Source of the DNA: Dyella tabacisoli
GTDB taxonomy: Bacteria; Pseudomonadota; Gammaproteobacteria; Xanthomonadales; Rhodanobacteraceae
Direction of reading: 5' to 3'
Assembly: GCF_003350925.1 (NCBI RefSeq)
Contig: NZ_KZ857174.1
Coordinates: forward strand, 499,484-563,483
Length of the DNA: 64,000 bases
Part shown: piece after piece, positions 9,026 to 42,757 of the stretch
How the letters are laid out: each line of letters opens with the position of its first letter
Position numbering within the stretch: position 1 is the stretch's first letter
Made by a program: the position numbers and the translations under genes
The notes under the pieces: model-generated
What the model was told of the DNA's origin: nothing
Seen by the model: the letters and a program-made list of their open reading frames with translations, nothing else
Databases searched by the model: none

Positions 9026-9100
9026 GGGCGGTTAGCTCAGCGGTAGAGCACTACCTTGACATGGTAGGGGTCACAAGTTCGATCCTTGTACCGCCCACCA
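9026..9100 (+). tRNA. tRNA-Val (anticodon GAC), CCA encoded
   Basis: Cloverleaf: acceptor gggcggt/accgccc, D arm gctc-agcggta-gagc, anticodon arm ctacc-ttGACat-ggtag, T arm acaag-ttcgatc-cttgt, 3' terminal CCA. Confidence 0.85.
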
Positions 9101-17412: not shown

Positions 17413-17489
17413 CGGGGCGTAGCGCAGCCTGGTAGCGCATCTGCCTGGGGGGCAGAGGGTCGTGGGTTCGAATCCCGCCGCCCCGACCA
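17413..17489 (+). tRNA. tRNA-Pro (anticodon GGG), CCA encoded
   Basis: Acceptor cggggcg/cgccccg, anticodon arm tctgc-ctGGGgg-gcaga, T loop ttcgaat, terminal a-cca. Confidence 0.85.
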
Positions 17490-28817: not shown

Positions 28818-30251
28818 ATGAATCGCTACTTGTCATCACGATCGCAGCTCAAAGCTCGGCTACGCAGTGGATTTCTCCGCGTTTGCCTGCTGGCATGTTT
28901 CGCAGCTCAGGCGCATGCACAAAGCAGCACGGCCAACGTTACTGTCGACTTTACTCAGCCGGGCATGTCGACCTCGTCGTGGTCGCTCGGCGCCACCATT
29001 TCCACCTATGCCGACGGCGGCAGCAATCTCATCAAGGGGGCTGCCCAGCCGCTGTGGCAGCAATACCTGCAAGATCTCGGTCCCCTGGTCTGGCGTATTC
29101 CGCTGTACTACCACGCAGGGCAGGTGGGCTCTTCTGCCGGTGGCATTCACGGGGGCAACGAGGGTGAGGCTTATATTCGAGCGATCAAGGCGATAGGCGG
29201 TGCGCCGATGATCGCTATCGGCGGCACGACCAGCGACAACGACATTCAAGCGTCCGATGCCTTCGATCTTGTTCACTATTTCAACGATGGCGATGGCCAG
29301 CATGGCGGCCCGGTGGATGCCTACATCGTTGGCAACGAGCCGGATAACGGTTTCGGTCTCGGCAATTACATTGCAGGCGGCAACGGCAGCTCCGGGTTCC
29401 ATGCCATTGTGGCGGGACTGCGTCAGGCTACGACGCGTCAGCTCTCCATTGCGGGCCCGGCATTCACCACGTGGGCGTCCTACAAATACGCCGATTTCCA
29501 GACGTTTTTCGCTGCCGACAACACAGACGTCGACATCGTGGATTTCCACAAGTATGGCGACGGGCAGCCGGACGCCAATTTGCAGCGCACCGGGCAGTAT
29601 GAAGACGGCATCAACTGGTTGCGCAATCAGGTGACACTGAATTTTGCCGGCCGCGCCAGCCAGATAGGTTTTCAAGTCGGCGAGTTCAACTACAACTCTT
29701 ACTACGGCTCGCAGTGGCGCAACGCGTTCTACACCTCACGCAATCTGGTGCATACCGCATCGGTGATCGGCCACGTGTTGCGTGCGGGCGGCAGGGCCTA
29801 TCAATACGCCGATAACAACGGCCCGCTGGGCTTGATTACCGACGGCACTTCGCGCAATGACCAGCCGCAGGGCCAGAACATTCGCCTGCCGGCTTATTGG
29901 GGAGTGTCGGTTTGGAGTGGCGGGGCCTGGACGCGTCGATTCGGTCAAGTCATGGTGGCAGCCTCGACGACGCTGCCGGATGTCGAGGTGTTCGCCACTG
30001 ATAACGCCAAAAAGATCGTTCTGATAAATAAGTCCGTCGATACGGATCGCCACGCGGTATTGGCATTGACGGGCAGTGACAGCGGCACTTACTCAGCCTG
30101 GCAATATGTGCGCGGCATGGACCCAGGCGCTTTCATGGCGGGACCACAGTTTCAGCCGCCGCTGAATATCGTTTCGAGCATACCTTTTGCACAGGGTGGT
30201 TTAGAGGTCGATCTGCCATGGATGAGTGTCGTGGTTATCACCATAGATTAA
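28818..30251 (+). CDS. secreted protein, putative clan GH-A (TIM-barrel) glycoside hydrolase; family unresolved
   Basis: Signal peptide. YIVGNEPDN (an NEP acid/base-like motif) and a later VGEFN candidate nucleophile segment are spaced as in clan GH-A enzymes. Confidence 0.35.
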   Translation: MNRYLSSRSQLKARLRSGFLRVCLLACFAAQAHAQSSTANVTVDFTQPGMSTSSWSLGATISTYADGGSNLIKGAAQPLWQQYLQDLGPLVWRIPLYYHAGQVGSSAGGIHGGNEGEAYIRAIKAIGGAPMIAIGGTTSDNDIQASDAFDLVHYFNDGDGQHGGPVDAYIVGNEPDNGFGLGNYIAGGNGSSGFHAIVAGLRQATTRQLSIAGPAFTTWASYKYADFQTFFAADNTDVDIVDFHKYGDGQPDANLQRTGQYEDGINWLRNQVTLNFAGRASQIGFQVGEFNYNSYYGSQWRNAFYTSRNLVHTASVIGHVLRAGGRAYQYADNNGPLGLITDGTSRNDQPQGQNIRLPAYWGVSVWSGGAWTRRFGQVMVAASTTLPDVEVFATDNAKKIVLINKSVDTDRHAVLALTGSDSGTYSAWQYVRGMDPGAFMAGPQFQPPLNIVSSIPFAQGGLEVDLPWMSVVVITID

Positions 30252-30880
30252 GACGCGAAAAATAATTTTAAATAATGCTTGCAAGCAATGCTGGGTCGAA
30301 GTAATGTTCGCGTCCTCGCTCACCTGAGCGAATAACCAAGAGATGAAACCCCATGTCGTTCGTTTTCGCCATTGCAGCTAAACCCAATATGTCGCGCCAG
30401 GCGTGCGATGCGGGTCTGTTTGCGCCAAGCGAACGGCATGATTTAGTTAGCGACGTTTCATTACTCGACTGATCCTCTCGCGGAGATCGGTCACCCCGAT
30501 CTCCCGAGGCAACGCGAACGCCCTCGGGTCGCCATACCCGGGGGCGTTTTGTTTTGTCTTCGATAAAGGCACGCGTTCGCAGGGGATGGCATGGATCGAA
30601 GAACGTTTACGAATCCGGTTCTGGGAGTAACCACTCCGCCCTGAAGTATCCGGCTGTCCGCACAGCCAAGGCAGGGGCATCAGGGTGCTTCGGTGCGAGT
30701 GGTGCGGGAACAGGGTTTACAAGGTATTTGGGCGCTCGCGCTCATAGGGATTGCCGGTTGGCGACAGCCGGTAATACGGAGCATCAGTTTGAACAGACTC
30801 AGCGGTACAGGCTCTTGGCCTGTCCGGTGCGCGCGGCTGTGCCGTGGCGTATGCCGAGGCCTGCGAGACGGTGTTTCGCG

Positions 30881-30950
30881 ATGACGTTAGCTCAGCGGTA
30901 GAGCGGCAATCTTACGGTTGCAGTCGCCGGTTCGACTCCGGTACGTCAAA
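30881..30950 (+). pseudogene. tRNA-like element, Val(UAC)-like but degenerate (6-nt anticodon loop, A·A at 1:72, no CCA)
   Basis: atgacgt ta gctc agcggta gagc g gcaat cttacg gttgc agtc gccgg ttcgact ccggt acgtcaa a. D and T arms are canonical. The anticodon loop is one nt short compared with tRNA-Val(UAC), which has cttacaa. Confidence 0.5.
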
Positions 30951-31023
30951 CATTGGATAGCTCAGTGGGTAGAGCATCGGACTGTTAATCCGACTGTCGC
31001 GGGTTCGACCCCCGCTCCAAACA
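30951..31023 (+). pseudogene. tRNA-Asn(GUU)-like element with a defective acceptor stem (C·C, A·A at 1:72 and 2:71) and no CCA
   Basis: cattgga ta gctc agtgggta gagc a tcgga ctGTTaa tccga ctgtc gcggg ttcgacc cccgc tccaaac. The internal cloverleaf is perfect. The acceptor pairs for only 5 of 7 positions. Confidence 0.5.
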
Positions 31024-31430
31024 TGACCTGTCACGTCATGACCAGGAACGAAAGTTCCACACCAGGAAACGCCTCGTGCGTTGCAGGGCGCGTACATAAA
31101 GGAAGCGCGTGCCCTGCAAAGCAGCGCTATTGTCGCCGGATTTTTGTTGTAGATACGGGCGGGTGAGTATCGAATGTGAGGCATAGCGTAATAGTGCGAT
31201 GCCTGACGGGAAATATGAGCCTCCCCGCGAAAACCACATGGGTTTCGCGACTTTATCGTCAAGAGGCGTTTCCACCTTATTTATCTTTGCGAATAACACC
31301 GTGAGATCGGTTTATTCGTAAGGCGAAGTATTGCCTTATTTATGGATTTAATTCATTGCGTGGAAACGATCCGGCCATGTAATGAAATACCTTACGGGTC
31401 GACCACCCAGAATAACCAAGGAGTATCGCC

Positions 31431-40575: not shown

Positions 40576-41607
40576 GTGAAAAAGTCTGATTTCAATTTTG
40601 AATTACCGCCTGAGTTGATTGCGCAGGCACCTTTGGCTGAGCGCTCAGCCAGCCGCTTGCTGCTTCTCGATGTGGTGGCGCAGCGGCGGCAGGATCACTA
40701 CTTTCGCGAATTGCCCGATTTTCTACGGGCCGGCGATCTATTGGTATTCAACGACACGCGTGTCTTGCCGGCGCGATTGCATGGACGCAAAGACACCGGC
40801 GGCGCGACCGAGATCTTGATCGAACGCGTCACCGGCGAGCATGAAGCCACCGTGCAACTGGGCGTGAGCAAAAAGCCGAAAGAGGGCGGGCGTATCGAGT
40901 TGGCTGATGGTAGCTACGCTACGGTGCTTGGGCGTGAGGGCTCGTTCTTTAAGCTGCGTTTTGAATCTCCTGAGCCCTTGGCGCAATTACTGCTGAAGCT
41001 CGGCGAGATGCCATTGCCGCCGTATATCGACCGGCAGGCCGATGCCAGCGACCTTGAGCGCTATCAAACTATCTATGCGCGTGAACCGGGGGCGGTTGCC
41101 GCGCCTACCGCAGGTCTGCATTTTGACGAGTCGCTGCTGGCGAAATTGCGCGAGCGCGGCGTGGATTTCGGCTATGTGACCCTGCATGTGGGGGCCGGTA
41201 CCTTTCAGCCTATCCGCGTGGACGACATTAAAGACCATCAAATGCACCGCGAGTGGTTAAACGTGGGCGCCAGCCTGGTCGAGAAAATTCAGCGTACCCG
41301 CGCTGCTGGCGGCCGCGTGATCGCTGTGGGCACCACCGTGGTGCGTGCGCTGGAAAGCGCCAGTTACGAGGGCGAGCTGCATCCGTTTGCCGGCGAGACG
41401 CAAATTTTCATTTTCCCCGGCTATCGCTTCAGCAGCATTGACGGTTTGATTACCAATTTCCATTTGCCGCAATCGACCTTATTGATGCTGGTTTCGGCAC
41501 TGGCCGGCCGCGAATTCATGCTCGACTCCTACCGGTACGCGGTAGATCAGCATTACCGCTTCTTTTCCTATGGCGACGCGATGCTGATCTTGCCGACAGG
41601 CGACTGA
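40576..41607 (+). CDS. queA: S-adenosylmethionine:tRNA ribosyltransferase-isomerase
   Basis: MKKSDFNFELPPELIAQAPLAERSASRLL…, GTG start, 343 aa. Confidence 0.93.
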   Translation: MKKSDFNFELPPELIAQAPLAERSASRLLLLDVVAQRRQDHYFRELPDFLRAGDLLVFNDTRVLPARLHGRKDTGGATEILIERVTGEHEATVQLGVSKKPKEGGRIELADGSYATVLGREGSFFKLRFESPEPLAQLLLKLGEMPLPPYIDRQADASDLERYQTIYAREPGAVAAPTAGLHFDESLLAKLRERGVDFGYVTLHVGAGTFQPIRVDDIKDHQMHREWLNVGASLVEKIQRTRAAGGRVIAVGTTVVRALESASYEGELHPFAGETQIFIFPGYRFSSIDGLITNFHLPQSTLLMLVSALAGREFMLDSYRYAVDQHYRFFSYGDAMLILPTGD

Positions 41608-41620
41608 CCCGTGCAGCTAA

Positions 41621-42757
<1,137 letters not shown>

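Follow-up and report, generated by a model that had tools for sequence, protein, structure and literature searches.

A conserved tandem of tRNA-like elements within a predicted long structured RNA beside the Band-7 and RtcB genes of Dyella tabacisoli and other Xanthomonadales

The tandem pair and its partner genes

A stretch of 64,000 nucleotides (nt) from the genome of Dyella tabacisoli (contig NZ_KZ857174.1, positions 499,484 to 563,483), in the following called the window, contains two tRNA-like elements in tandem at positions 30881-31023, upstream of the genes for a Band-7 protein and the RNA ligase RtcB. ARAGORN reports four tRNA-like genes in the window, namely a tRNA-Val(gac) at 9026-9100, a tRNA-Pro(ggg) at 17413-17489 and the two members of the pair. 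The first of these (unit A) is called tRNA-??? at 30881-30951 with a two-base anticodon 'ta', which is indicative of a loop shorter than 7 nt, and the second (unit B) is called tRNA-Asn(gtt) at 30951-31023. With the Rfam tRNA model RF00005 (gathering score 29) the units reach 48.0 and 59.6 bits, compared with 68.2 bits for the genuine tRNA-Val and 63.5 bits for the tRNA-Pro. The initial annotation of the locus had proposed two cloverleafs with canonical D and T arms and mismatched acceptor stems, and both programs bear out the cloverleafs, including the two arms in each unit. The Rfam alignment also contains the mismatches that it had listed, an A.A at position 1:72 of unit A and a C.C and an A.A at the acceptor base of unit B. 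Neither unit is followed by an encoded CCA in the window, where unit A runs into the linker AACAT and unit B into AACATGA, and the bona fide tRNA-Val and tRNA-Pro both encode ACCA, as had been stated.

Unit A (30881-30950, forward strand) combines a 6-base-pair (bp) acceptor stem (30882-30887/30943-30948) with a D and a T arm of canonical form. Its anticodon arm is best read in the window as a stem of 6 bp that ends in the tetraloop UUAC; the '6-nt loop' of the initial annotation is an equivalent reading. In unit B (30951-31023, forward strand) the paired acceptor (30954-30957/31016-31019) consists of four conserved pairs, TGGA/TCCA, extended in the window by a fifth U-A pair, and the anticodon arm carries the Asn-like 7-nt loop CUGUUAA. 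Across about 58 nt this unit is 82-88% identical to phage tRNA-Asn genes. The paired acceptor stems are separated by the 5-nt linker AACAT (30949-30953, forward strand), and the earlier impression that the units directly abut at 30950/30951 has to be corrected in this respect.

The gene of the Band-7/SPFH (slipin) protein (31431-32570, forward strand; 379 amino acids; Pfam PF01145, E=5e-29) starts 408 nt 3' of the pair on the same strand and is followed by the gene of RtcB (32627-33847, forward strand; Pfam PF01139, E=2e-124), a ligase that joins 3'-phosphate or 2',3'-cyclic-phosphate ends of RNA to 5'-OH ends. A Dyella tabacisoli protein matches the Band-7 protein with 100% identity. No hydrophobic segment is obvious in the Band-7 protein, whose residues 177-361 resemble stomatin structures. 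A structure model based on 25 close homologues had a mean pLDDT (predicted local distance difference test) of 57.6, with values below 50 for the 72 N-terminal residues, and was not used.

Conservation and covariation in Xanthomonadales

Scanning one genome per species with the Band-7 protein retrieved 80 related loci (L001-L080) at 72-84% identity, nearly all of them labelled Xanthomonadales/Lysobacterales and comprising Rhodanobacter, Dyella, Frateuria, Lysobacter, Luteimonas, Pseudoxanthomonas, Xanthomonas, Thermomonas and others. RtcB is found after Band-7 in 72 of them, and the other neighbours vary. ARAGORN predicts one or two tRNA-like genes with assorted 'anticodons' about 350-570 nt 5' of Band-7 in most of these loci. 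A covariance model of the two cloverleafs, built from 36 pairs, found the full tandem in all 78 Xanthomonadales loci with enough upstream sequence (106-176 bits), always on the strand of the gene; in the two loci without a match the sequence ends 231 and 367 nt 5' of Band-7. The distance between pair and Band-7 gene is 356-643 nt in nearly all loci and 101 nt in one. This recurrence is far beyond chance.

The alignment of 79 tandem pairs documents a conspicuous covariation. Base pairing is possible in 98.6% of the cells, a value that none of 500 column shuffles reached, compared with 89.4% after shuffling, and sliding the 3' partners gives 32-44%. Double (compensatory) changes are found in 24 of the 38 base pairs. 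The initial annotation had favored decayed tRNA genes or attachment-site remnants, and this idea is contradicted by the maintenance of the pair, with compensatory changes and at a fixed position, in at least eight genera of Xanthomonadales.

The peculiarities of the acceptor stems are shared by the family. In unit A six acceptor pairs are conserved and position 1:72 never pairs, and unit B has an invariant 4-bp acceptor, TGGA/TCCA, next to almost invariant D and T arms. Since the short stems are conserved among the orthologues, the apparent acceptor defects are best understood as features of the design and not as signs of decay. The anticodon arm of unit A has a 5-bp stem with a 4-nt loop, often of the GNRA type, in 48 of 79 loci (GCAA 12, GAAA 8, GCAT 6, GCGA 3, others) and a 7-nt loop in only 12. 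The designation of this unit as Val-UAC-like is thus without meaning, even though the loop is indeed shorter than 7 nt. The anticodon stem of unit B covaries, and its loop-closing pair is A-U in 40, U-A in 27 and C-G in 10 loci. The linker follows the pattern N-CCA-C/T in 66 of 79 loci and is ACCAC in 44, with the CCA out of register for a 7-bp stem. The lack of a CCA, correctly noted for the pair in the window, accordingly does not extend to the family; the consensus ACCAC can be read as a discriminator-like base plus CCA, of which AACAT in the window would be a degenerate version.

A canonical decoding tRNA is characterized by a 7-bp acceptor stem, a conserved anticodon and, going by the real tRNAs of this genome, an encoded 3' CCA. 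The pair has six and four conserved acceptor pairs, 31 different triplets among 73 copies of unit B and, in the window, no CCA after either unit. The initial annotation had envisaged that the orthologues might be the only Asn and Val genes of their genomes, and the opposite is seen: with 31 triplets among its orthologous copies unit B cannot be the Asn decoder of the genome. Gene finders label the elements of L001-L080 arbitrarily as Asn, Met, Ile, Leu, Pro, Tyr, Cys, 'SeC' or 'Stop'.

A hypervariable loop and a third anticodon arm

The anticodon loop of unit B is hypervariable in its triplet. It measures 7 nt in 73 of 79 loci, and among these the frame is largely retained (U33 in 55, A37 in 67, A38 in 52), and positions 34-36 present the 31 triplets mentioned above (GTT 17, CAT 7, CAG 6, many others), a stop anticodon included. 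For 31 closely related pairs of loci, chosen by a limit of six differences in 141 core columns, the divergence per site is 0.47 at positions 34-36 and 0.035 in the core. Third-codon positions of Band-7 provide a yardstick for individual pairs: L055 and L064 differ at 12% of them and at 6 of 7 loop positions, L043 and L075 at 11% and 4 of 7, L048 and L050 at 7% and 3 of 7, and L015 and L012 at 26% with identical loops (0 of 7). The turnover of the loop is episodic and can far outrun that of near-neutral sites. The pattern fits diversifying selection or small conversion events and proves neither of them.

A third mimic, the free-standing anticodon arm H1, is located directly downstream of unit B (31022-31040, forward strand) and consists of a 5-6-bp covarying stem with the 7-nt loop CUGUCAC. 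All four core pairs of the stem show compensatory changes (ATGAC/GTCAT, ACGAC/GTCGT, CCAGA/TCTGG, CTGC/GCAG). H1 is present in 57 of 79 loci, with the loops CTGTCAC (25), CTGTAAA (8), CTTTCAC (8) and CTGTTAC (6) as the most frequent ones. CTGTCAC is the anticodon loop of Escherichia coli tRNA-Asp(GUC), and the alternative H1 arm CCAGACTGTAAATCTGG matches the arm of E. coli tRNA-Tyr(GUA) at 15 of 17 positions. The E. coli tRNAs were taken as comparators in place of an ARAGORN 'tRNA-Asp' in L067, a call that was unsupported by Rfam.

Two lineages deviate from this arrangement. In eight Pseudoxanthomonas loci (L043, L048, L053, L054, L056, L070, L071, L079) an additional small hairpin, GCCTGCAAGGGC or a variant of it, separates unit B from H1. 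The Dyella loci L006, L011-L013, L015 and L034 are devoid of H1 and have the GNRA hairpin CAGGGCGAAAGCCCT in its place; for unit A of these loci ARAGORN gives the His anticodon GUG or AUG, except for L011, which has a 4-nt loop.

The predicted long RNA around the pair

Judged from its conservation and folding, the pair appears to be the center of a single non-coding RNA, about 0.7 kb long and highly structured (approximately 30570-31288). Conservation spans about 800 nt in an alignment of the whole intergenic region of 78 loci, and the 731-nt stretch of the window has a minimum-free-energy z-score of -4.98 relative to shuffled sequences. Among the families of Rfam 15 only tRNA matches the RNA in sequence or structure.

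The 5' part is densely paired. Upstream of unit A 58 pairs were counted, 32 of them compensatory, and 95.9% of the cells are paired, compared with 85.8% in shuffles and 32-45% with slid partners. Next to unit A lies a junction domain (30778-30877, forward strand), which is closed by the helix GGAGCAUC/GGUGUUUC (30778-30785/30870-30877), ends 4 nt 5' of the paired acceptor of unit A (30882) and holds a hairpin ACAGGC..GCCUGU together with an invariant motif. This motif, GGTGCGC-N-GCGTATGCC (30826-30855, forward strand), is predicted to pair GUGCGC with GCGUAU, including two G.U pairs, around a small hairpin; no other piece of the RNA is conserved as widely as the resulting helix GGUGCGC/GCGUAUGCC, which is close to unit A on its 5' side. 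Further upstream are the hairpin ATTGCCGG...CCGGTAAT (30748-30777, forward strand) with 12 predicted pairs, nine of them compensatory, and a distal region (30636-30715, forward strand) with short covarying hairpins (30652-30655/30664-30667 and 30677-30681/30692-30696), in which the window carries a deletion relative to most of its relatives. The semi-conserved box GCGTTCGCAGGG (30572-30583, forward strand), which stands out in alignments of 78 and 39 loci and follows directly after an upstream terminator, may be close to the 5' end or the promoter of the large RNA. A scan and visual inspection detected neither a sigma-70 nor a sigma-54 consensus between 30556 and 30880.

Downstream of H1 the GNRA-tetraloop hairpin H2, GGAAC-GAAA-GUUCC (31045-31058, forward strand), covaries with GGGAC-GCAA-GUCCC and GGGC-GCAA-GCCC in relatives. 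It is followed by the 3' domain (31065-31273, forward strand), whose 11-bp closing helix GGAAACGCCUC/GAGGCGUUUCC (31065-31075/31263-31273) covaries in many lineages, spans 185-207 nt and surrounds a hairpin (31078-31122) as well as a long rod with interruptions (31124-31259). In this domain 42 of 54 predicted pairs are compensatory and 93.9% of the cells are paired, compared with 80.0% in shuffles and 39-49% with slid partners. After the closing helix comes the pyrimidine-rich tail ACCUUAUUUAUCUUU (31274-31288, forward strand). Comparable tails, ACCTTnTT, occupy this position in most loci, mostly 85-260 nt and in a few loci up to about 360 nt before the ATG of Band-7. The tail could be that of a terminator and mark the 3' end of the RNA; a simple terminator scan made no call at 31274-31288.

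Just 5' of the large RNA, a compact unit (30289-30556) is conserved in all sampled Xanthomonadales loci. It comprises a sigma-70-like promoter (cTTGCa-N17-GTAAnGT), a small open reading frame (ORF) of 39 codons (ATG at 30353, stop at 30470-30472), the invariant hairpin GGAGATCGGTCACCCCGATCTCC at 30481-30503 and an intrinsic terminator at 30516-30549 that is more than 90% identical across genera. A test of peptide conservation revealed a weak and loose common pattern, M-K-x-x-F-x-I-A...ID. The sequence CCGAGG (30504-30509) is able to pair with the 5' arm of the terminator, and the unit may therefore represent an attenuator that permits read-through into the large RNA.

Distant loci and a cross-phylum core

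Four further loci with distant Band-7 homologues (37-45% identity) were obtained from a plasmid/chromid collection. The order in Photobacterium sp. GJ3 is a divergent RtcR, a sigma-54-type promoter (TGGCAC-N5-TTGA), the tandem pair, Band-7 and RtcB; the pair scores 115.6 bits with the two-cloverleaf model and its units 54 and 46 bits with the Rfam tRNA model. Burkholderia cenocepacia exhibits the same order, with unit A as a minihelix of acceptor and T arm and unit B with a GAAA tetraloop. Subdoligranulum (Firmicutes) has a reduced form, with one GNRA hairpin and two hairpins of the T-arm type ahead of Band-7 and RtcB. In E. coli STEC639 (CP061233.1, L081, 3680-3830) a sigma-54-type promoter (CTGGCAC-N5-TCGCA) and a lone T-arm-like hairpin, ATGGGTTCGATTCCCAC, are followed by a Band-7 homologue of 44% identity, whose partner gene encodes a nucleotidyltransferase and not RtcB; the hairpin may be a reduced relative of the RNA. 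The Xanthomonadales lack a nearby RtcR but have a greatly expanded RNA.

The invariant motif is shared across these distances. In the form GGTGCGC-N(3-33)-GCGYATRCC, 78 of 88 loci contain it, in each case as a single forward-strand copy directly 5' of unit A. Those of Burkholderia, Photobacterium and Subdoligranulum are among them, and the chance expectation is 0.05 per 64 kb. Because the sequence of the helix is invariant across phyla, it represents the likeliest, albeit putative, protein-binding site of the RNA. A scan of viral contigs for the signature of unit B yielded two with tRNA-like matches, neither of which encodes Band-7 or RtcB.

The gene neighborhood

Pfam identifies an ABC transporter, a two-component system, Band-7, RtcB, DUF3142, a PIN/AbrB pair, QueA and Tgt in the neighborhood of the pair, and three further large ORFs belong to no Pfam family. 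The pair had been regarded as the boundary of a genomic island. Accessory DNA is present here, but the pair does not bound it: to its right follow the conserved Band-7 and RtcB genes, and only the DNA after RtcB is variable. In the 80 related loci DUF3142 occurs in nine, the two paralogues without a Pfam match in zero and six, and a 477-amino-acid ORF in none. The predicted direct repeat of the 3' tRNA segment near 40531 was not found, each 25-nt 3' segment being unique in the 64-kb window at up to three mismatches; there is likewise no direct repeat relevant to the pair in 30500-41200 and no integrase among the Pfam-scanned ORFs of about 25.2-42.8 kb. With neither repeats nor an integrase, and with the pair conserved at its orthologous position, the island or attachment-site reading was abandoned.

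The truly variable part of the supposed island is the block at 33980-39702, which is present in few relatives and consists of the gene for the DUF3142 protein and two large paralogues (35151-37166 and 37177-39702) with 72-73% identical DNA repeats and hydrophobic N-termini in both proteins. On the other side of the RNA, the 477-amino-acid ORF (28818-30251) without a Pfam match is located between a LuxR-type response regulator and the RNA module. In related loci the LuxR-type regulator, when present, adjoins the RNA module directly, and the ORF looks like an insertion specific to the window.

Two neighbors have a conceivable relationship to tRNA. An AbrB/MazE-type antitoxin gene (39757-40068) overlaps a gene for a PIN-domain (VapC-like) toxin (39998-40531), and since some VapC toxins cut the anticodon loops of tRNAs, a tRNA-cutting toxin may be encoded about 6 kb from the RtcB module. 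The genes for QueA and Tgt (40576-42757), located where the supposed island has its right end, fall within the 4-kb flank of Band-7 in 8-10 related loci. Both enzymes serve the insertion of queuosine at G34 of GUN anticodons, and Tgt recognizes U33-G34-U35. The mimics often carry GUN triplets with U33-G34-U35: unit B has GUU, H1 has GUC or GUA, and in some Dyella unit A has GUG. This adjacency could be a coincidence or a functional link; the Photobacterium and Burkholderia loci do without it. Neither Band-7 and RtcB nor their neighbors matched the PADLOC defence libraries.

Comparison with known systems

The closest precedent is b7a-tRNA, a predicted and experimentally unvalidated tRNA-like RNA beside Band-7 and RtcB that is mentioned in a preprint (bioRxiv 10.1101/312249, citing Burroughs and Aravind, Nucleic Acids Res 2016). 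With its adjacency to Band-7, the presence of RtcB in the locus and its strong resemblance to tRNA the pair agrees with the description quoted there, and the element is therefore of the kind predicted in 2016 and not categorically new. The quoted account, however, speaks of a single tRNA-like RNA, whereas the RNA of the window has two units with short acceptors and adds a third anticodon-arm mimic, the invariant 5' helix and about 500 nt of covarying structure. Beyond this preprint, through whose quotation we know the 2016 prediction, we found no literature on b7a-tRNA. As far as this quoted material allows a provisional statement, we found no prior description of the tandem with fixed short acceptors, the cross-phylum 5' helix, the extra arm mimic, the hypervariable loop or the approximately 0.7-kb RNA of Xanthomonadales.

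Another instructive case is the Y RNA YrlA, which acts with Ro60 (Rsr) in the rsr-yrlBA-rtcBA operon. It is likewise a non-coding RNA with a tRNA-like domain beside RtcB, thought to act with a ring- or cage-forming protein, and the Photobacterium and Burkholderia loci share with this operon the location behind RtcR and a sigma-54-type promoter. Unlike unit B and H1, which keep full anticodon loops, the one tRNA-like domain of YrlA has a Ro-binding stem in place of the anticodon arm. Membership of the RNA in the YrlA family was rejected at 23.7 bits with RF02553 (gathering score 69), and there is no Ro/TROVE gene among the Pfam-scanned ORFs of about 25.2-42.8 kb. Of the divergent RtcR and the sigma-54 promoter that characterize RtcR/sigma-54-controlled rtc operons, the window has no RtcR homologue and, between 30556 and 30880, no sigma-54 consensus. 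In Salmonella, RtcR binds 5' tRNA halves and nicked tRNAs ending in a 2',3'-cyclic phosphate, thereby turning on the rtc operon, and the domain of YrlA that resembles a tRNA has been put forward as one that might competitively inhibit an anticodon nuclease (PMC7790460; PMC10159003).

With canonical bacterial tRNAs (RF00005) the pair has in common the D arm, the T arm, the variable region and the cloverleaf as such, but it differs in its acceptors of 6 and 4-5 bp, the unconserved anticodon, the usual tetraloop of unit A and its embedding in a larger RNA. The large 'ornate' non-coding RNAs OLE, GOLLD, ROOL and raiA are densely covarying multi-domain molecules of about 0.6-0.8 kb whose biochemical function is unsettled. 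The RNA of the window is alike in size class, covariation and multi-domain composition, but is distinguished by its fixed partner genes and its tRNA-shaped modules. A more distant analogy is the vault particle, in which the major vault protein with its SPFH-like shoulder domain is associated with vault RNAs; here, too, an SPFH-type protein of a ring- or cage-forming family would be paired with a structured RNA.

Proposed role of the RNA

The pair is very probably part of a tRNA-mimic RNA that belongs to the Band-7/RtcB locus and not a relic of decayed genes. The fallback of the initial annotation, tRNA-like regulatory or decoy elements, is thus supported in kind, as we are dealing with non-decoding mimics tied to an RNA-repair locus. 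Together with this identity, a general role of the RNA as the tRNA-mimic partner of a Band-7/RtcB repair module appears likely. Binding by the Band-7 protein is suggested by the gene linkage, and the partnership would parallel that of the tRNA-like YrlA with Ro in the Salmonella rsr-yrlBA-rtcBA operon.

How such a partner might work is a separate question, and the following bait-and-repair mechanism, which taken alone is less certain than the identity and the general role, is proposed tentatively. The displayed anticodon arms would imitate those of cellular tRNAs (Asn and Asp in the window), anticodon nucleases would bind or cut the imitating arms, and RtcB, kept close by Band-7, would reseal the nicked arm. 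Where RtcR exists, the nicked mimic would itself be a tRNA-like ligand with a 2',3'-cyclic phosphate that induces the operon. An extended form of this proposal, unlikely in its entirety, is an exchangeable 'anticodon display': the RNA would represent a class of about 0.7 kb not yet described as a whole, with the invariant helix and the two tRNA-shaped modules as its cross-phylum core, which copies the arms of attacked tRNAs (Asn, Asp, Tyr, His, Met and others), has them cut by nucleases instead of or along with the real tRNAs and resealed by Band-7-held RtcB, and serves as a renewable decoy or damage sentinel, its loops being engaged in an arms race with the nucleases.

Several points weigh against bait-and-repair and partly against the structural evidence itself. 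The secondary structures were derived from the same alignments in which the pairs were counted, so that the pairing percentages lean towards structure; counts of double changes are more robust in this respect. A freely varying anticodon would likewise result from lost constraint, and some fairly diverged pairs of loci share identical unit B loops, so that diversifying selection is not proven. In most species unit A has no anticodon loop, a poor fit to a pure bait, and we know of no anticodon nuclease that targets these bacteria. Finally, a homologue of RtcR is missing from the window and from the flanks of all Xanthomonadales loci, and the step with the RtcR ligand therefore cannot apply here.

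The strongest competitor, possible though doubtful, is a pure scaffold or cofactor, a tether in the manner of Y RNAs that would bring together Band-7 oligomers, RtcB and perhaps further enzymes acting on tRNA. Its tRNA shapes would dock and never be cut, leaving the triplet unconstrained. The linkage to both genes, the YrlA/Ro analogy in rtc operons and the tetraloop of unit A where an anticodon loop is expected are all in accordance with this idea, as is the invariant sequence of the helix that forms the most conserved element, a trait typical of sites bound by proteins. A passive docking module would, however, not be expected to keep positions 32, 33, 37 and 38 while 34-36 change, to copy real anticodon loops (Asn, Asp, Tyr), to add a third, free-standing anticodon arm or to show a loop turnover that can far exceed third-codon divergence. 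Due to the conserved U33/A37 frame around a free triplet, the copied loops and the bursts of loop turnover we favor the bait over the passive scaffold.

A cis-acting leader of the Band-7-rtcB mRNA seems quite unlikely. In this scenario the tRNA shapes would be signals for RNase P and RNase Z or an attenuator, and the helix and tail at 31263-31288 a conditional terminator. The RNA does share its strand and a constant order with the Band-7 gene, from whose start it is 85-260 nt away in most loci, a sigma-54-type promoter precedes it in Photobacterium, Burkholderia and E. coli with no other promoter evident before Band-7, it ends in a terminator-like helix with a pyrimidine tail, and the invariant upstream terminator has a possible antiterminator pairing. 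About 150 covarying pairs and three anticodon-arm mimics, however, far exceed the needs of a processing signal or attenuator, and acceptors of 6 and 4 bp would be poor substrates of RNase P. The leader would also be compatible with a trans-acting role after processing.

Decayed tRNA genes or attachment remnants of a genomic island, suggested by the acceptor mismatches, the absence of CCA in the window and the variable segment after RtcB (DUF3142, the two paralogues and the VapBC-like pair), are most improbable for a pair that is kept with compensatory changes across genera and even orders, whose 6-bp and 4-bp 'defects' are themselves conserved, whose 3' halves are unrepeated in the window, that has no integrase among its Pfam-scanned neighbors and at which the variable segment does not start. 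Equally remote is the notion of unusual decoding tRNAs, one for Asn and a second with a short anticodon loop: both units do exceed the Rfam gathering score and unit B does resemble phage tRNA-Asn genes (82-88% over about 58 nt), but the orthologues present 31 triplets including a stop anticodon, the acceptor stems have just 4-5 and 6 bp, unit B lacks CCA and a discriminator context, and unit A usually carries a tetraloop.

Significance

The locus bears on the question of what bacterial RtcB repairs and why it is often found beside a tRNA-like RNA and a ring- or cage-forming protein. It provides a concrete object for this question: the RNA is long, its domains are defined, one of its helices is invariant and has the look of a site for protein binding, and as many as three anticodon arms, copies of particular tRNAs, change rapidly among relatives. 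One practical consequence concerns annotation, which routinely turns the mimics into tRNA genes with an arbitrary anticodon. The mimics do not belong in a count of decoders, and the number of tRNA genes annotated at this locus is probably too high in the genomes of these bacteria. Even if the RNA serves only as a scaffold, a large structured RNA with good support, which Rfam lacks, would be added to those known. Should the bait or decoy mechanism be true, it would give cells a novel means of coping with toxins that cut tRNAs, and likely substrates of RtcB would be directly identified.

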